Of a stretch of 64,000 nucleotides of DNA, positions 3,861 to 60,896 are shown one piece after another. The DNA lies in assembly GCF_900539765.1 (NCBI RefSeq), contig NZ_UQDF01000002.1; one strand, written 5' to 3'. Position 1 is the first letter of the stretch. Each line of letters starts with the position of its first letter. The translations under genes were made by a program, and so were the position numbers. This stretch comes from an uncultured Porphyromonas sp. Lineage in GTDB: Bacteria > Bacteroidota > Bacteroidia > Bacteroidales > Porphyromonadaceae. Below the pieces are notes generated by a model, which searched no databases, was not told where the DNA came from, and saw nothing but the letters and a program-made list of their open reading frames with translations.

Positions 3861-4004
3861 ACTGATATGGATCTATTGATACGAAGACAAAGGCTCTCGA
3901 TACAACTATGGGGACTTAGTTGCAGAGCCTTGATGGATCAACCAAGCTCCCGTTACGTATTGCGAAGATAGTTATTTCAAATGACAAAGTGTAATCAAAT
4001 ACGT

Positions 4005-4185
4005 CTGAGCGTCCGTTGTGTCAAGCGAAACGAGCGTCCCTACAGATCGAGGTTACAGCGTTTGATGAATGGAATTGTCGTGCTGACGTAGCTTGTGTAG
4101 GGGCGGACCTACGTGTCCGCCCGCAGAATAGACTGCACTCAGGTGAGGACGGGCGGACACACAGATCCGCCCCTACGGTGGAAGC
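4005..4185. repeat. GCGTCC/GGACGC hairpin-pair repeat (family 3), locus A
   Basis: Contains gagcgtccgttgtgtcaagcgaaacgagcgtccctaca, then two stable hairpins gtaggggcggacctacgtgtccgccc and gggcggacacacagatccgcccctacgg. Shares motifs GCGTCCGTTGTGTCAA(A)GCGA and GCGTCCCTACA with the loci at 17.5 and 60.4 kb. Confidence 0.5.
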
Positions 4186-4366
4186 TTCCACCCCGCCGAG
4201 CGGTTCACCCGAAGAGAAGTCGACTGAGTTTCCGAAACGAGAAAAAACTTCGCATTTTACTTGCATATAAACTTAGAAAGCAGCGGGCTAGACGTCAACC
4301 ACAAAGGCGCATCAAGCAGTACTGCTTGATGCGCCTTTTGTGGTTGATTAGAGGCGAGTAGCCTTT

Positions 4367-5544: not shown

Positions 5545-5740
5545 ACACGTAGTTGGCTGAAAAAGTCGATATCCACGTGGGGATTCTCAAATCTCCACGT
5601 GGAAAATAAAAATTCTCCACGTGGAGGCGAAATAAAACTTCGGAGGAATCAAATGATACTTCGGAGGAATCGTTTTGCGCCTACGTGGAGAATAAAAAAT
5701 AGCCACGTGGAGATTTGAGATTTTCCACGTGGATATTGTC
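5545..5740 (+). repeat. CACGTG-box composite palindromic element, copy 1
   Basis: Three tCCACGTGG boxes at ~22-bp spacing, a central tandem repeat (aaacttcggaggaatcaaatga / tacttcggaggaatcg), then three boxes in mirror orientation. Terminal inverted repeat ATATCCACGTGG .. CCACGTGGATAT. Lies in the divergent ilvE/thrS upstream region. Confidence 0.75.
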
Positions 5741-5917
5741 CTCTTCCTAAAAAAAAGTACACAGTTGGAAAGGTGTTACTGAGACGGTACACGGATCGTC
5801 TTTGGCGGGATGGAGAGTGAGAGCTTTTTTGTACCTTTGTGGCGTATATACATTTTTGAGATTGTTGCAGAGAGCAAGAGTCTCCTCATTATATTAGTCG
5901 ACTACAACATACCACTT

Positions 5918-7870
5918 ATGTCTGATCAGATACATATCACGCTACCCGATGGCAGTGTGAAGGAAATGAAGCAGGGGGTGACCCCGCTAGATATAGCTAA
6001 TAGCATCAGCGAGCGACTGGCACAGGAGGTCCTAGCGGCCGAGTGCGACGGCGAGCTTATAGATATACGTACACCGCTGATGCAAGATGCCCACATCAAG
6101 CTCCTCAAGTGGGAGGACGAAGGCGGCAAGCACGCTTTTTGGCACACCTCGGCTCACCTTATGGCCGAGGCGCTTCAGGAGCTGTACCCTGGCGTACAGT
6201 TTGGCATAGGGCCTGCTATCGAGGCAGGCTTTTACTATGATATAGATGCTGGTAATGAGGTGATCAAGTCGGAGGATCTGCCGAAGATCGAGGCTAAGAT
6301 GCTGGAGCTGGCGCATCGCAAGGAGACGCTCGAGCGTAAGGCGATCTCTAAGAGCGATGCCTTGGACTTCTTCAAGAAAACGGGTCAGGGCTACAAGCTA
6401 GAGCTGATCAACGATCTGGAGGATGGCACCATCACGACCTATACGCAGGGTGCCTTCACGGATCTCTGTCGTGGACCACACCTTCCCTCCACAGCGCCTA
6501 TCAAGGCGGTCAAACTACTGAGCGTGGCTGGCGCTTACTGGCGTGGCGATGAGACGCGCAAGCAATTGACTCGTATATATGGTATCACCTTCCCCAAGAA
6601 GAAGCTCCTCGATGAGTATCTCGCTATGCTCGAAGAGGCGAAGAAGCGCGACCACCGCAAGATAGGTAAAGAGCTGGAGCTCTTTGCTTTTTCACAGCGT
6701 GTCGGGCAGGGTCTGCCTCTGTGGCTACCACGCGGTACGCAGCTGAGACTTAAGCTCGAAGACTTCCTCAAGCGTATCCAAAAGCGCTACGGCTATCAGC
6801 AGGTGATGACGCCTCACATCGGCAATGTGGAGCTCTACAAGACGAGCGGTCACTATGCTAAGTATGGTGCTGACTCATTTCAAGTAATCACGACTCCTCA
6901 GGAGGGGGAGGCTTTCATGCTGAAGCCGATGAACTGCCCTCACCACTGCGAGATATACAAGCTCAAACCACACTCTTACAGAGATCTGCCGGTACGTCTA
7001 GCTGAGTTTGGTACGGTCTATCGCTACGAGCAGAGCGGTGAGCTACACGGCTTGACGCGTGTACGTGGCTTCACGCAAGACGATGCACATATCTTCTGCC
7101 GTCCTGATCAGGTCAAGGAGGAGTTCCTTAAGGTGATGGATATTATCTTCATCATCTTTAGAGCTCTAGACTTTGAGAACTTTGAGGCGCAAATCTCTCT
7201 ACGCAGCCAGACTGATCGTAGCAAGTACATCGGTAGCGAGGAGAACTGGGATCGTGCTGAGCAAGCGATCATCGAGGCTTGCCAAGAGGCTGGTCTACCA
7301 GCACATATCGAGTACGATGAGGCTGCTTTCTACGGCCCGAAGCTTGACTTTATGGTCAAGGATGCTCTCGGTAGACGCTGGCAGCTGGGTACGATCCAGG
7401 TAGACTACAACCTGCCAGAGCGTTTTGATCTAGAGTACACAGGCGAGGACAATCAGAAGCACCGCCCTGTGATGATACACCGCGCACCCTTTGGCTCTAT
7501 GGAGCGATTTGTAGCGGTACTCATAGAGCACACGGCGGGTAAGTTCCCCCTATGGTTGGCTCCTGACCAAGTGGTCATACTGCCTGTCTCGGAGCGCTTC
7601 AACGACTACGCCAACGAGGTGGCAGCAGCCCTGAGCGAGCATGACATCAGCGTATCCGTTGACGACCGCAATGAGAAGGTGGGTCGCAAGATACGTGACA
7701 ATGAACTCAAGCGTATCCCCTACATGCTGATCGTCGGTGAGCAAGAGCAGGCTGACGGCACTGTATCGGTACGTAAGCAGGGCAAGGGTGATGCAGGTAC
7801 AGAAAAAATTAGTACCTTTGCCGAGCGTATCCTTCGAGAGATAGAGAGTCAGATGAATGCCAGAGGGTAG
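5918..7870 (+). CDS. thrS: threonine--tRNA ligase
   Basis: TGS/editing/class II catalytic/anticodon domains recognisable (..[11 protein letters not shown].., ..[10 protein letters not shown].., ..[10 protein letters not shown]..). Start set at [12 protein letters not shown] (residue 37 of supplied ORF). Confidence 0.9.
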
Positions 7871-9582: not shown

Positions 9583-10917
9583 ATGTCAGCTCTTCAAGCA
9601 ATATCACCTCTAGATGGTCGCTATGCGAGCAAGACCGCTCCCCTAGCAGCTTACAGCTCCGAGTCAGCGCTCATCCGCTATCGTGTACGTATCGAGGTGG
9701 AGTACCTCATAGCGCTAACCCAAACGATACCCGCACTGAGCCAATCCCTCACAGAGCCTAAGCAAGAGGCTCTAAGAGAGCTTTACAAGGAGTGGTCTAC
9801 AGAGGCCGCACAAGAGGTAAAGGATATCGAAGCTACGACCAATCATGATGTCAAGGCTGTCGAGTACTACATCAAGCGTCATCTGCCACAGCTGGGACTA
9901 GAGGAGATTGAGGAGTTTGTCCACTTCGGACTAACATCGCAAGATGTCAACAATACCGCCTTCCCGCTGATGCTTCGTGAGGCGCTGCACGAGGTCTACC
10001 TCCCGACGCTCCAGAAGCTCATCGAGCAGCTACGTCAGCTCGCCAATGAGTGGCACGATGTCGCTATGCTGGCTCGCACGCATGGTCAGCCCGCTAGCCC
10101 CACGCGTCTGGGCAAGGAGATTATGGTCTTCGTCTACCGCTTGGAGCAGCAGGCCAAAGCTCTGGAGCAGGTGCCTATCACGGGCAAGTTTGGCGGTGCT
10201 ACGGGCAACTTTAATGCGCACCATGTCGCCTACCCTACCATTGACTGGGTCGCTTTTGGCAATAGCTTTCTCACATCACTAGGGCTAGAGCGTGAGCAGT
10301 ACACAACGCAGATCTCCAATTACGACAACCTCGCTGCCCTTTTTGAGGCGATGGCTCGCATCAACACGATCCTCATCGACCTGGCTCGAGACTTCTGGAG
10401 CTACATCTCTATGGGTTACTTCGGGCAGAAGATCAAGGCGGGTGAGGTCGGCTCTAGTGCGATGCCTCACAAGGTTAATCCCATTGACTTTGAGAATGCT
10501 GAGGGCAACCTCGGACTAGCTAATGCGATGGCTCTGCATCTAGCCTCCAAGCTCCCCATATCTCGTCTGCAGCGCGACCTAACAGACTCGACGGTGATAC
10601 GTAATCAGCTCGTCCCGATGGGCTACACGCTAATAGCTTTCAGTAGTCTCTCTAAGGGTCTTGGCAAGCTAGTCATCCACCCCGAGCGCATCGCTCATGA
10701 TCTCGATTGCAACTGGGCCGTGGTCGCCGAGGCTATCCAGACGATCCTGCGCCGTGAGGGTTATCCACACCCTTATGAGACGCTCAAGGCACTGACCCGC
10801 ACAGGAGAGGAGATAAGCCAAGAGACGATCGCCAACTTCATCGACACCTTGGAGGTTGCTGAGGAGATCAAAGAGGAGCTTCGTCAGATCACCCCGAACA
10901 ACTACGTGGGGGTCTAG
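9583..10917 (+). CDS. purB: adenylosuccinate lyase
   Basis: MSALQAISPLDGRYASKT.. N-terminus and fumarate-lyase signature (GSSAMPHKVNP). Start set at residue 19 of supplied ORF. Confidence 0.85.
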   Translation: MSALQAISPLDGRYASKTAPLAAYSSESALIRYRVRIEVEYLIALTQTIPALSQSLTEPKQEALRELYKEWSTEAAQEVKDIEATTNHDVKAVEYYIKRHLPQLGLEEIEEFVHFGLTSQDVNNTAFPLMLREALHEVYLPTLQKLIEQLRQLANEWHDVAMLARTHGQPASPTRLGKEIMVFVYRLEQQAKALEQVPITGKFGGATGNFNAHHVAYPTIDWVAFGNSFLTSLGLEREQYTTQISNYDNLAALFEAMARINTILIDLARDFWSYISMGYFGQKIKAGEVGSSAMPHKVNPIDFENAEGNLGLANAMALHLASKLPISRLQRDLTDSTVIRNQLVPMGYTLIAFSSLSKGLGKLVIHPERIAHDLDCNWAVVAEAIQTILRREGYPHPYETLKALTRTGEEISQETIANFIDTLEVAEEIKEELRQITPNNYVGV

Positions 10918-21068: not shown

Positions 21069-21252
21069 AATTATAAAGCTTAGAAGTTAGTATTGTTGGT
21101 TTGTTATCATTTCGCTCTCTTTAGATCTCTCGTTGAAGTCTCTCGTTGCTTCAACACCTTGTACCACAGAAGATGAAACAAGCAAGAAACAATCACCATA
21201 CCACAAAGATAGTTTTTTTTGCAAACAACAAAGCGCTTGATGGTAGACGAAA

Positions 21253-21281
21253 CGTCTAACCTCTAACTTCTAATCTCTAAT
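21253..21281. repeat. degenerate heptamer array (TCTAAYN)x4, reverse orientation of the RNTTAGA arrays
   Basis: cgtctaacctctaacttctaatctctaatcc, directly abutting CACGTG element copy 2. Confidence 0.55.
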
Positions 21282-21287
21282 CCGATC

Positions 21288-21452
21288 GTCACGTGGAAAA
21301 TCTCAAATCTCCACGTGGCGGTTTTTCATTTTCCACGTGGAGACGAAATGATTCCTCCGAAGTTTCATTTGATTCCTCCGAAGTTTTATTTCTCGCCTAC
21401 GTGGAGATTTTTTATTTGCCACGTGGCGATTTGAGAATTTCCACGTGGGGAT
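21288..21452 (-). repeat. CACGTG-box composite palindromic element, copy 2
   Basis: cgtcacgtggaaaatctcaaatctccacgtgg..ttccacgtggagacgaaatgattcctccgaagtttcatttgattcctccgaagtttt..cctacgtggag..gccacgtggcgatttgagaatttccacgtgggg. Central tandem in opposite orientation to copy 1. Confidence 0.75.
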
Positions 21453-21628
21453 CAGCTTTTTTTGTGGCAAAGCGTTTCGGGCATAAGAGATTCTGTTCAG
21501 AATGTGCTAGTGAGTGGAATATGCTGAAGGCGGCATATTTTGCTCTCAGCAGTTATTTCAGTAGATTTGCGTTAGAATCGACTGGGCGCATCCAGAGGAC
21601 TGAGCCCCCTAAGTAAGACCATTTACCG

Positions 21629-26507: not shown

Positions 26508-27770
26508 ATGATGAATCAAGCAAAGAGTGGCGGCTATAAGTTTCTCGCCATCAAAGACCGCAACTGCCTACTCGGAAGCAATGGCGAGATCGCTCTAGAG
26601 GATCGCGAAGCTCTTCTAGAGGTGCAGGAGGAGTACGCCCTGCGTGTGGCGGTCGCCAGCGAAGCTCCTATGACTAGTCTTCTGAAGATCTCGGAGCTGC
26701 TGCAACTACCACGCAACAGTGGCTACGTCATCTCCCATCTAGGCGCACGCGTTCACAACTGTCGTACGGGTCGTGAGCTAGCCTCTCGTCCTCTCCGTGC
26801 GGAGCAGCTCACGCATCTCTACGAGCTGGTCGATAGCGACTACACGCTCGCACTCATAGGTGAGAAAGCGCTCTACGCTACGAAGACCCATCAGCCACGT
26901 ATCCTCCAGCTCGCCAAGCTTTGGAGCATGCCGATCCTAGACTTGACCAAAGCAAATGAACCCTTCAAAGCTCCTGCCGAGCCGATCTTTAGAGCTATCA
27001 TCTTAGCCAGACAAGATCGCCTGGCGAAGCTGAGCGACCTGCTTAATTCAGGACAAGGCTTGACCGCTACCTTCTACGATGAGCCGATGAATGAGCTCTC
27101 AGTCGTAGCCTCTGGCGTCAGCCTGCGAGGAGCGCTCGACTTTATTCTCGACCGACTAGACCTCAACCAGCAAAACGTCATTGCCGTCGGCACCACCCTA
27201 GAGGATGCCGCCATGGTGCAGCGTGCAGGACTAGGCGTAGCTATGGCAAACGCTCCCGAGCCGCTCAAGAGCTGCGCTGACTACATCACCACCTCTTGCG
27301 ATGCTGCGGGCTTAGCCCATATGATCACCAAGCAGATCAAGCTGCGCTACGATGGAGTCCCCTTTGACCCAGAAGATGCCAACGAGATCATGCCCAACAC
27401 GCTCATGGGTACGCTCGGTATGCGCTGCACAGAGATAGCTCGTGGCTATGTCACGGGTACTATGCCCGTGGACAATCGTACGAGACAACCGATGGGTATA
27501 CTGCACGGAGGGGCTTCGCTAGCCTTTGCCGAGACCCTCGCAGGACTAGGGTCAGTAGCCATAGCCAACGAAGGCGAGATACAGGTTGGCATGCAGGTGA
27601 GTGGCTACCACGTCTCCTCGACAGTCGTCGGAGACACCGTGCGAGGTGTCGCTACGATACTCCACAAGGGGCGCAGCACACACGTCTGGAACGTAGATAT
27701 CTACTCCACCCAGAGTGGCAAGCTGATCTGCACCTGCCGTGTCATCAACAGTATCATCAAGCAGCGCTAA
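26508..27770 (+). CDS. fusion protein: Cof-type HAD-IIB hydrolase (N) + PaaI/YbgC-type hotdog thioesterase (C)
   Basis: N-terminal ~270 aa has Cof-like HAD features (YKFLAIKD.., ..GVAMANAPEPLKSCADYIT..). C-terminal ~140 aa is a hotdog thioesterase (..GILHGGASLAFAETLAG..VSGYHVSS..STHVWNVDIY). Start set at MMNQAK (residue 29 of supplied ORF). Confidence 0.65.
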   Translation: MMNQAKSGGYKFLAIKDRNCLLGSNGEIALEDREALLEVQEEYALRVAVASEAPMTSLLKISELLQLPRNSGYVISHLGARVHNCRTGRELASRPLRAEQLTHLYELVDSDYTLALIGEKALYATKTHQPRILQLAKLWSMPILDLTKANEPFKAPAEPIFRAIILARQDRLAKLSDLLNSGQGLTATFYDEPMNELSVVASGVSLRGALDFILDRLDLNQQNVIAVGTTLEDAAMVQRAGLGVAMANAPEPLKSCADYITTSCDAAGLAHMITKQIKLRYDGVPFDPEDANEIMPNTLMGTLGMRCTEIARGYVTGTMPVDNRTRQPMGILHGGASLAFAETLAGLGSVAIANEGEIQVGMQVSGYHVSSTVVGDTVRGVATILHKGRSTHVWNVDIYSTQSGKLICTCRVINSIIKQR

Positions 27771-40055: not shown

Positions 40056-40080
40056 ACACGAAATTCCCAATCAACGTAAG

Positions 40081-40118
40081 AGGAGACGGCCACACGTGTT
40101 GGTCGTCTCCTTTTGCAT
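40081..40118 (+). terminator. hairpin + T-rich tract downstream of the GNAT gene
   Basis: aggagacg gccacacgtgttggt cgtctcct tttgcatttat. 8-bp stem with a CACGTG-containing loop. Confidence 0.45.
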
Positions 40119-40149: not shown

Positions 40150-40320
40150 CTCTCCACGTGAGGAATCACAAATCTTCACGTGGATATTTTTTATTCTCCA
40201 CGTAGGCGAGAAAGATTTCCTCCGAAGTTTCATTTGATTCCTCCGAAGTTTCATTTCTCGCCCACGTGGAGAATTTCTATTCTCTACGTGGATATCTCTA
40301 ATTTTCCACGTGGATATTGC
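40150..40320 (-). repeat. CACGTG-box composite palindromic element, copy 3
   Basis: ctccacgtgagg..cttcacgtggat..ctccacgtaggcgag..ttcctccgaagtttcatttgattcctccgaagtttcattt..cccacgtggag..ctacgtggat..tccacgtggatattg. About 215 bp upstream of gdhA. Confidence 0.75.
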
Positions 40321-59659: not shown

Positions 59660-59690
59660 GGGAGACTATTGCAAAAGTCAACAGTCTCCC
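59660..59690. repeat. GGGAGACT-N15-AGTCTCCC conserved-loop hairpin (left copy of an inverted pair)
   Basis: gggagactattgcaaaagtcaacagtctccc, followed by a second palindrome caatcttgcaagcaagattg. Confidence 0.6.
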
Positions 59691-59854
59691 AATCTTGCAA
59701 GCAAGATTGTCTAGACTTTGCAGAAAGGATGAAGCGCAAGACGCCGAGGGTGAGGTCTGAAGGGAACATACCTCCGTATGTGACCGAAGCCGAATCCCGA
59801 AAGCAACACAGCGATTCGCCTTTATGCAACAGTCCCAAAGGGGCTGGTGCGGAG

Positions 59855-60275: not shown

Positions 60276-60327
60276 CGTGCAAGAGAGGAGAGATTAGATG
60301 TTAGAGATTAGAAATTAGAGGTTAGAA
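60276..60327. repeat. degenerate heptamer tandem array (GANRTTA)x7
   Basis: gagattagatgttagagattagaaattagaggttagaagttagagcgag. Confidence 0.6.
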
Positions 60328-60384
60328 GTTAGAGCGAGACGTGTAGCCCGTATAGTGATGCACAGATAGTGTCTAGCGAGAGGA

Positions 60385-60545
60385 TGTCCGTTGCCGAACC
60401 ATCCAACGTGTAACGGGTGTAGGGACGCACGATCTGTGCGTCCGTTGTGTCAAAGCGAGATTGCGTCAAGTTTTGTATTCGTCCTGGCTGGTTCGAGAAC
60501 GGACGCACGAGCCGTGCGTCCCTACAACCGTTACACGTCTCACGA
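60385..60545. repeat. GCGTCC/GGACGC hairpin-pair repeat (family 3), locus B
   Basis: acgtgtaacgggtgtagggacgcacgatctgtgcgtccgttgtgtcaaagcgagattgcgtcaag..gaacggacgcacgagccgtgcgtccctacaaccgttacacgt. The two ~40-bp arms are inverted copies and each arm is itself a hairpin. Confidence 0.5.
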
Positions 60546-60559
60546 GGAAATCGGAAAGC

Positions 60560-60735
60560 TCCAGGGAGGAAACGGAATTTCCCCACGGAGGACCGAAATA
60601 AAAGTTCGGAAGAATGAAATGAAACTTCGGAAGAATGAAATCGAAGTTCCGAAGAATTTTTGCCTCCGTGGAGAGTCTCGCTTTCTTCCGTGGAGACTGT
60701 TGACTTTTGCAAGAGTCTCCCGTGGACAATTCTGA
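60560..60735 (+). repeat. CACGTG-box composite element, copy 4 (diverged: CCACGG/CCGTGG boxes, triple central unit)
   Basis: ..ccccacggagg..aaagttcggaagaatgaaatgaaacttcggaagaatgaaatcgaagttccgaagaat..cctccgtggagag..ttccgtggagactg..cccgtggac. Same architecture as copies 1-3 but with the G of CACGTG lost in the boxes and cggaAgaa instead of cggaGgaa. Confidence 0.55.
60692..60721. repeat. GGAGACT-N15-AGTCTCCC conserved-loop hairpin (right copy, inverted relative to 59660)
   Basis: ggagactgttgacttttgcaagagtctccc is nested between two CCGTGG boxes of element copy 4. The loop is the reverse complement of the 59660 loop. Confidence 0.6.
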
Positions 60736-60896
60736 TTTTCCTCGAGCTGTGGGGAGTTGATTTGCGGACAGGGTATAGGTACTTTCAGGCTATGGCAAAC
60801 AAAATGAGCGTGCTGACTGTACTTAGTCAACACGCTCACGGTTGGGGTGTAGTGTGAGGGGCGATGGGCCACTACACTATTCCTTATAACGAGTGC

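Follow-up and report, generated by a model that had tools for sequence, protein, structure and literature searches.

Four repeat copies in a Porphyromonas contig

A stretch of 64,000 nucleotides from contig NZ_UQDF01000002.1 of an uncultured Porphyromonas sp. (RefSeq assembly GCF_900539765.1), referred to below as the window, contains four copies of a palindromic repeat element in which two arms of short phased boxes enclose a central tandem. Three of the copies are well preserved (c1-c3) and one is diverged (c4). Each of the four is intergenic, lying between long open reading frames (ORFs), and Pfam labels at the c1-c3 loci agree with the neighbours named in the preliminary description of this DNA, which had been made from the sequence alone. 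c1 is situated between a divergently oriented aminotransferase class IV gene and thrS; c2 between divergent genes for a 132-aa hypothetical protein and a 1003-aa TPR protein; c3 lies 3' of an acetyltransferase gene and a terminator-like hairpin, and 5' of the glutamate dehydrogenase gene gdhA. Three of the four window copies are placed upstream of gene starts. The components of the copies are listed below, with the strand defined by the polarity of the central tandem.

c1, 5566-5738, + strand: CACGTG-type core element
c1, left-arm boxes: starts at 5573, 5595 and 5617
c1, central 21-nt tandem: 5630-5671
c1, right-arm boxes: starts at 5681 (CTACGTGG), 5703 and 5725
c2, 21283-21455, - strand: CACGTG-type core element
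c2, boxes: starts at 21289 (TCACGTGG), 21311 and 21333; 21397 (CTACGTGG), 21419 and 21441
c2, central tandem: 21349-21391
c3, 40150-40319, - strand: CACGTG-type core element
c3, boxes: starts at 40154 (CCACGTGA), 40176 (TCACGTGG) and 40198 (CCACGTAG); 40262, 40284 (CTACGTGG) and 40306
c3, central tandem: 40217-40256
c4, about 60536-60750, + strand: diverged copy of the degenerate-box subfamily, with boxes CCACGGAGG / CCTCCGTGG
c4, three central 21-nt units: 60595-60657
c4, 60694-60721, no strand: 27-bp palindrome GAGACTGTTGACTTTTGCAAGAGTCTC inside the right arm, resembling two abutted IS5-type terminal inverted repeats (TIRs)

The box sequence CCACGTGG occurs without mismatch at 11 sites in the 64 kb, against 0.64 expected under dinucleotide-preserving shuffling; none of 100 shuffles matches this count, and all 11 sites fall inside c1-c3. 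The non-exact boxes of these copies are one-mismatch variants of CCACGTGG in the same register. Phasing of the boxes at 21-23 bp, as first described, is upheld, and the spacing can be refined to exactly 22 bp between box starts. A BLASTN search of the window with c1 recovers c2 at 86% and c3 at 84% identity, both on the opposite strand, and c4 by a partial match only. The layout of three boxes, a centre and three inverted boxes is verified, as is the direct duplication in the centre, for which Tandem Repeats Finder reports a period of 21 nt with 2.0 copies in c1-c3 and 3.0 copies in c4. The tandem lends polarity to the element, and both orientations are represented (c1 and c4 on the + strand, c2 and c3 on the - strand).

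Two of the initial claims stand in part. As to the inverted outer ends, c1 is the only copy that carries ATATCCACGTGG at both ends. The architecture is shared by c1-c3, and c4 departs from it by its non-palindromic boxes and by an extra palindrome in the right arm, GAGACTGTTGACTTTTGCAAGAGTCTC, which accounts for its additional length. The capacity to fold into a long hairpin is confirmed for all four copies: the predicted fold energies of the single-stranded DNA are -52, -42, -39 and -39 kcal/mol for c1-c4, far better than those of shuffled sequences (z = -12.2, -8.6, -8.2 and -4.8). No Rfam family matches anywhere in the 64-kb window.

Host range and copy number

The element belongs to a repeat family that is restricted to a clade of uncultured human-gut Porphyromonas and was previously undescribed; a literature search on CCACGTGG in bacteria turned up nothing relevant. 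An nhmmer profile built from c1-c3 identifies 48 full-length copies in Porphyromonas loci, and a catalogue compiled with profiles of both main subfamilies over about 2.1 Mb of fetched DNA (loci numbered with the prefix L) comprises 222 elements in 194 loci, in keeping with the dispersed, intergenic, multi-copy repeat originally envisaged. Element lengths have modes at 170-179 nt (99 elements) and 190-199 nt (36), which reflect the presence of two or three central units. The extrapolation from four copies to tens per genome is likewise borne out, with at least 26 copies in the fetched parts of a single metagenome-assembled genome (MAG), HGUT-03837, and at least 13, 10 and 7 copies in UMGS107, UMGS907 and UMGS18, respectively. 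Many copies are found at contig ends, as expected of a repeat that breaks assemblies.

A scan for phased box pairs, which covered one genome per species and whose listed matches are lower bounds, gave numerous matching loci in the genomes of eight uncultured Porphyromonas species (UMGS107, MGYG-HGUT-03837, UMGS907, UMGS18, MGYG-HGUT-03897 and three others). Unrelated phyla yielded single box-pair matches at chance level, and none of the loci from other phyla has an element profile match. The central dimer is present in more than 119 metagenome stretches among the matches listed, the labelled ones being from human gut, and in one IMG/VR contig; it is absent from the annotated plasmid and phage records searched. 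That contig, IMGVR_UViG_3300045988_180429, is the sole predicted viral contig with a full element (L132 190-335), located about 200 nt from the start of the fetched stretch, and the copy may belong to the host flank of a provirus and not to phage DNA. The window has a G+C content of 52.8%, and its ThrS protein is encoded identically on ENA metagenome contigs, at least one of which is labelled human gut. Among members of the clade ThrS identity is 98-100%; it next declines to 86% and, in other Porphyromonas, to about 82%. In about 20 kb around thrS in three outgroups including P. circumdentaria, a limited sample, no element is detected even at E <= 10.

Modular build and box subfamilies

Copies measure 170-192 bp, terminate in GATnnCCACGTGG, and have inverted arms of about 60 nt with three boxes each at a periodicity of 22 bp. 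When 41 distinct full-length copies are aligned, conservation is highest in the boxes and in the centre (CGGAGGAATCAAATGAAACTTCGGAGGAA), and the spacers are more variable. The central tandem (CTTCGGAGGAATCAAATGAAA), composed of the 21-nt unit AAACTTCGGAGGAATCAAATG, is nearly invariant across the family. The string ...GGA(G)GAAT is common to the box units, the degenerate boxes and the central units, so that the whole element looks like a series of about eight diverged units of 21-22 bp. Units are also swapped between compartments: two boxes and three central units are found on the left in L053, L073, L083, L049 and L024, and four boxes with one central unit in L045 and L071.

Window-type copies have AAAATAAAAATTCT as the second spacer of the left arm, and the other main type has AGAATTTTTATTTC. 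At 13 of 14 bases one is the reverse complement of the other, which indicates that the segment between two palindromic boxes has been inverted and leaves that part of c1 unable to pair. In L075 and L052 the centre seemed to be flipped with respect to the arms; this was rejected as an artefact of the strand choice made by nhmmer.

Box types are nearly exclusive within an element: among 184 elements, 118 are of the CACGTG type, 10 of the CCTAGG type and 40 degenerate, with 16 mixed or other. The degenerate boxes, with the core CGGAGG, are those of c4. Copies of this type are found in other genomes at 80-88% identity, with boxes such as CCACGGAGG, CTACCGAGG and CCTCGGTGG and three well-conserved central units, and c4 is not simply a decayed copy. 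The CCTAGG type has the same centre and, by eye, three boxes per arm (TACCTAGGAA / TTCCTAGGTA) at similar spacing. CACGTG-type and degenerate elements coexist on the same contig, as in the window, and one contig likewise has CCTAGG-type together with degenerate elements. Among the sampled loci, which form a small sample, none combines the CACGTG type with the CCTAGG type. In this sample, loci bearing the CCTAGG type share long stretches of 98-99% identity only with loci that bear CCTAGG-type, degenerate or no elements, and are 80-90% identical to matching CACGTG-bearing loci.

Larger mosaics

In other genomes the 170-bp unit is the core of larger mosaics. The flanks of the core are also conserved in HGUT-03837, UMGS107 and UMGS18, over 50-180 nt on the left and 15-210 nt on the right. 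At L013 outer inverted repeats TACATATCGAAACGG ... CCGTAAAGATATGTA enclose the core, which directly adjoins a 7-mer array, (TAGAGNT)n, and is flanked by copies of a distinct palindromic module, about 115 bp long, which we designate P. A 7-mer array occurs within 150 nt of the element in 49 of the 184 cases, and an end of the P module within 400 nt in 56 of them. A separate MITE (miniature inverted-repeat transposable element), about 175 bp long and with IS5-type TIRs, shares intergenic islands with the elements. A core accompanied by outer inverted repeats, 7-mer arrays, P modules and IS5-type MITEs has the mosaic character of repetitive extragenic palindromic (REP) sequences and bacterial interspersed mosaic elements (BIMEs).

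The P module has the ends CAGGGCTGACGCATTATAAT, and its copies were located at L013 3938-4052 and 4430-4530, at L073 5370-5470 and 5850-5960, and in L229; the window contains no copy that we could find.

Recombination and turnover at element sites

Copies of the element act as rearrangement points within the species. L001 and L003, which belong to the same species as the window and are 99.9% identical over 12.3 kb, have a TetR gene beside thrS where the window has the aminotransferase gene. Their differences from c1 cover the whole left arm and extend through the first central unit; from the second unit of the centre on, the sequences are identical. L120 (GCA_048293755.1; 98.9% identity) matches c3 exactly through one arm and the central tandem; beyond the tandem it continues with a different arm, in which the boxes are kept and the spacers are different, and with gyrA in place of the window's gdhA. 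Both within-species crossovers thus map to the central tandem, which is nearly invariant, and homologous recombination between dispersed copies would be expected to place them there.

Corresponding sites differ in their occupancy between related genomes. One site just 3' of a gene is unoccupied in L238; L255 has an element of the CCTAGG type there, and L229 a P module with a degenerate-type element. The site downstream of one gene bears a CCTAGG-type element in L228 and a CACGTG-type element in the opposite orientation in L045 and L246. A 576-bp mosaic consisting of P, a 7-mer array, a long-form element and P, so that two direct P copies bracket it, is present in L073 and absent as a block from L239, with flanks of 95-97% identity. 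In these empty and filled comparisons (one site and one 576-bp indel) the junctions are not clean, and no target-site duplication is seen at the sites compared.

A different arrangement is found at the c2 site in L115 (1-139), from the same species, with the junction at window position 21268. The site is without the box element; the 7-mer array leads directly into the start of an ORF (MKEEKSNRGRKGYPLDFKWRVIDDLLATGE...), which is cut off by the end of the contig and possibly belongs to an insertion sequence (IS); the fetched DNA holds no other copy of this ORF. The only sizeable cluster of paralogous neighbours of the elements is formed by what look like large secreted surface proteins (9 of 347 neighbours, 35-37% identical, in non-orthologous contexts). 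These proteins, of about 1180 aa with an N-terminal signal-like sequence, are exemplified by L078 1351-4899 and found at eight other loci.

Tests for functional constraint

There is no detectable coding, promoter-position or RNA-structure constraint on the element. No conserved ORF is present; a small ORF that would start from a Shine-Dalgarno-like GGAGG-N6-ATG in the centre was considered and rejected, as in 22 of 39 copies it reaches a stop after 6 codons, and it displays no codon-position pattern.

The very strong folding (z of -8 to -12) might point to a structured nucleic acid similar to REP or enterobacterial repetitive intergenic consensus (ERIC) sequences, whose co-transcribed hairpin would stabilise the mRNA, be a target of RNase or act as an insulating terminator. 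Several copies also have a GAAAAA tract directly outside the left end, which amounts to a T-run after the hairpin on the other strand, and a role of this kind is compatible with the element being a repeat family. The alignment of the 41 copies, however, displays no covariation between the arms: for the full arm-to-arm hairpin the proportion of paired cells is 74.9%, equal to the shuffled mean of 74.9% and reached by 236 of 500 shuffles, and the covariation score is 0.079 against 0.077 in shuffled data. A conserved hairpin is rejected on this account, and RNAalifold favours local hairpins between boxes. The arms are therefore complementary because palindromic boxes have been conserved in the same register, and not because pairing has been selected. 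With the inverted second spacer of window-type copies, which cannot pair, with no match in Rfam and with placement unbiased towards gene 3' ends, a structural role of the transcript is unlikely.

Under another explanation, already listed in the preliminary description, the phased CCACGTGG boxes form an operator array for a transcription factor that controls the adjacent genes as a regulon. The boxes are palindromes of about 14 bp in exact 22-bp phase and rank among the most conserved positions, and the position of three window copies upstream of gene starts would suit such a function. Gene context argues otherwise. The 35 copies that have an ORF of at least 100 aa on either side comprise 19 in tandem, 8 in divergent and 8 in convergent contexts, the ratio of about 2:1:1 expected for random intergenic placement, with variable element-to-ORF distances of 20-900 nt and no bias towards promoter positions. 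All 35 lie between ORFs, a count in which ORFs overlapping the element were set aside and which is therefore not an independent test of intergenic location. The neighbouring genes are functionally unrelated, and the consensus, examined by eye, contains no good Bacteroidota -7 TAnnTTTG with a -33 TTTG. Whole subfamilies lack CACGTG: the CCTAGG and degenerate types share the same centre. It is the centre and not the box that is invariant, and the same site can carry different box types and orientations in related genomes. We regard an operator array as quite improbable; of the candidate explanations offered at the outset, the MITE-like and REP/BIME-like pair fits best.

The CACGTG and CCTAGG cores could also be targets of lineage-specific methyltransferases or restriction-modification systems. 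Both are classic 6-bp palindromes of the restriction-site type, the box type appears lineage-specific in a small sample, and a methylation-associated intergenic repeat exists elsewhere (PMC10969869). Against this, the DNA outside the elements shows no depletion of CACGTG or CCTAGG (observed/expected 0.89 and 0.99, respectively), which also rejects restriction avoidance, and the degenerate subfamily is without a palindromic core; we consider the methylation explanation very improbable. Chromosome-maintenance sites, whether parS-like centromere sites or DnaA-titrating boxes, are hardly credible: the parS consensus TGTTNCACGTGAAACA does have the CACGTG core in common with the element, and the TATCCACg of some boxes resembles the DnaA box TTATCCACA, but the outer GTT/AAC arms of parS are absent, the last base of the DnaA box is wrong, the TAT flank is found in only some boxes, and the element occurs in tens of copies genome-wide with subfamilies devoid of CACGTG.

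Interpretation

We consider it likely that the four copies represent a superfamily of intergenic repeats that is undescribed and restricted to one clade. It would be modular, without coding capacity and non-autonomous, and of the same kind as MITEs, BOX elements and BIMEs. Each copy would be an array of about eight related 21-22-bp units, three of them boxed, two or three central, and three boxed and inverted. The element would spread and turn over between intergenic sites, often within larger mosaics, and its nearly identical central tandem supplies the dispersed homology at which the two crossovers show homologous recombination within a species. Identity between copies at different loci amounts to 92-97% in UMGS107 and only about 76% in UMGS907. 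These data fit an element that is old enough for fixation at many sites and that was more recently amplified or homogenised in some genomes, as the high identity of the UMGS107 copies suggests.

Several observations weigh against this interpretation. By-eye inspection of the flanks of 48 full-length copies, without a systematic count, revealed no consistent target-site duplication, and no short canonical TIR ending could be defined. Neither an autonomous partner nor a recurrent transposase or recombinase family is encountered within 1.2 kb of the 184 elements. Sites are occupied in species of about 90% identity (c1 in L070, L107 and L112; c2 in L041), and the contigs of the window species retrieved for three sites all carry the element; on both counts current mobility may be low. 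The 576-bp block that differs between L073 and L239 is bounded by a different module, P, and its presence or absence as a unit makes it possible that the core is often carried along, as a passenger, by larger mosaics. All copy numbers are minimum values, the MAGs being fragmented, and that the boxes bind a protein is something we purely infer.

Each box, a palindrome of about 14 bp (TnTCCAC|GTGGAnA), would be bound by a dimeric protein, with three dimers per arm on one face of the DNA, and this protein may be an architectural protein of the host or else the enzyme, a transposase or recombinase, by which the element is mobilised. The change of all six boxes together between subfamilies would then reflect either co-evolution with the binding protein or homogenisation of units within an element, and these two alternatives also account best for the regular 22-bp phasing. 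In a more far-reaching version, which we find doubtful, the arms would be three in-phase sites for a clade-specific dimeric protein (a transposase, a recombinase or a domesticated architectural protein) with a specificity that switched between sister lineages (TCCAC|GTGGA, then TACCT|AGGAA). If true, the repeats and the protein would constitute a co-evolving system that places nucleoprotein complexes at tens of intergenic sites, and the near-exact spacer inversion between two palindromic boxes could even be left over from site-specific recombination centred on the boxes.

The family adds a repeat to a poorly studied clade of uncultured gut Porphyromonas and explains two properties of its genomes: the fragmentation of MAGs, since many contigs end inside the element, and the differences in gene order between 99%-identical strains, since it is within the element that crossing over took place. 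The 32-nt dimer of the centre, which hardly varies, is a specific marker: the matches listed comprise more than 119 metagenome stretches and a single viral contig. The concerted change of six boxes between subfamilies offers a natural experiment on protein co-evolution versus internal homogenisation.

Neighbouring genes and other repeats of the window

The ThrS ORF next to c1 encodes 686 aa from position 5810, against about 650 aa in homologues outside the clade (94% covered). Its 5' end is probably too long and the real start is likely near 5920, which would place c1 about 185 nt upstream of the start. The GC-rich hairpin with a T-run before c3 (gaggagacggccacacgtgttggtcgtctccttttgc, window 40078-40112) is just 3' of the acetyltransferase gene and looks like its intrinsic terminator; this hairpin holds a CACGTG outside the element. 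'Module Z' of the thrS region, considered as the end of an element-targeting IS, was rejected, being merely conserved thrS-proximal sequence at orthologous sites.

Tandem 7-mer arrays (TTAGAGA / TTAGAAG / TTAGAGG) often abut the ends of box elements. They occur in the window at 1530-1580, 21251-21280 and 60282-60334, at L013 4351-4385, and flanking the element of L228, where (10410-10601) arrays on both sides are inverted to each other. The array at the c2 site is the following feature.

21251-21280, no strand: array of tandem 7-mers, (TCTAAYC)n, immediately adjoining the c2 tail

Copies of the separate MITE, which is about 175 bp long and has the IS5-type TIRs GAGACTGTTGCA, are located at window 59662-59836, L004 6688-6862, L054 7378-7552, L073 4202-4376, L080 146-320 and L085 4523-4697. 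The same TIR is that of MITEPgRS/ISPg4 of P. gingivalis (PMC4596501). Other tandem repeats of that species are PgRS/MITE464, which has a 41-nt tandem and repetitive flanks, and the 22-nt repeats reported for strain W83. IS5-type TIRs were considered as boundaries of the box element and rejected, as they belong to this MITE in shared intergenic islands. In L125, from the same species and with groES/groEL as neighbour, homology to the window ends at 59834, the end of the MITE. Palindromes of 20-27 bp resembling two abutted IS5-type TIRs, such as GAGACTGTTGACTTTTGCAAGAGTCTC, are present at window 60694-60721 and 5858-5884 (in the thrS leader region), L006 4255, L055 194, L085 4497 and L078 5665, and may represent minimal MITEs or the footprints of excision.

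A further intergenic repeat, GC-rich and palindromic (GTAGGGACGCAC...GTGCGTCCCTAC, GGGGCGGACC...GGATCCGCCCC), occupies window 4000-4300 and 60400-60540, L125 559-806, and the left flanks of the L067 and L024 elements; window 4049-4296 and L125 559-806 are 92% identical. It stands in place of the box element at the site orthologous to L060 5161-5331. Window 3997-4351 was rejected as an empty site relative to L060, the entire spacer having been exchanged for other repeats.

Comparison with known systems

The ends of Tn7, Mu and IS21 contain several subterminal asymmetric transposase-binding repeats, a defined terminal di- or trinucleotide, and target-site duplications. The present element resembles them in having several site-sized repeats of about 22 bp per end, inverted between the ends, and differs in that its boxes are palindromic and no defined termini or duplications were found. 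Among the general criteria of MITEs, the small size (below about 600 bp), the lack of coding capacity and the inverted-repeat ends fit (170-192 bp, arms of about 60 nt, no conserved ORF); inspection of the flanks revealed no consistent target-site duplication, and no autonomous IS with the same ends was found within 1.2 kb of the 184 elements or in the plasmid and phage records.

Enterobacterial BIMEs are intergenic mosaics of small palindromic modules that serve as recombination substrates and are bound by Escherichia coli host proteins. Single REP units are palindromes of 20-40 nt, usually placed at gene 3' ends and linked to RAYT transposases. The family described here shares with BIMEs the intergenic mosaics of palindromic modules that are substrates of rearrangement; unlike REP sequences and BIMEs it has no 3' bias. 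No transposase-like family recurs beside the elements, although no search aimed at RAYT was made.

Pneumococcal BOX elements have the structure boxA-boxB(n)-boxC with terminal modules that pair, and are present in about 100 or more intergenic copies with no known transposase. The modular A-B(n)-C organisation and the pairing terminal modules have their counterparts here, with two or three central units, as an analogy and not as membership. BOX elements also cluster with and nest into other small repeats (PMC10969869). The two systems are unrelated in sequence and phylum, and in the Porphyromonas element the arms are 22-bp arrays of palindromic boxes related to the centre, with a box sequence that differs by subfamily.

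BrickBuilt, a MITE/minisatellite of P. gingivalis and P. gulae (Klein et al. 2015, PMC4596501), is a system of analogous design in the same genus. Both families have a short tandem of variable copy number between two flanking segments, are strictly intergenic and present in tens of copies, have a limited host range, predicted long stem-loops and no Rfam match, and break draft assemblies; both are strain-variable and sit beside other repeats. Identity with such an element had been suggested at the outset and is refuted by the published sequences. The 23-nt BrickBuilt consensus AGAYCATARTATCCTCTCRTRTG is unmatched at up to 4 mismatches in the window and 131 loci, and aligning it with the consensus of the element gives a score of 8, where shuffled sequences average 8.3. 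The BrickBuilt TIRs, GAGACCTT(T/C)GCA ... TGCAAAGGTCTC, which in that family delimit the leader and the tail on the outside, have no exact match in the window or the element copies, and a single one-mismatch match in the window, at 27531, is unrelated to any copy. BrickBuilt has a 23-nt unit in 1-23 copies and non-repetitive flanking segments of 285-318 nt (PMC4596501), whereas the element has a 21-nt unit in 2-3 copies and internally repetitive arms of about 60 nt, shows no sequence similarity, and resides in a gut clade with a GC of about 53%. Membership in the BrickBuilt family is on these grounds virtually untenable, and a tempting mis-annotation is corrected. The family resembles BOX and BrickBuilt in design and not in sequence.

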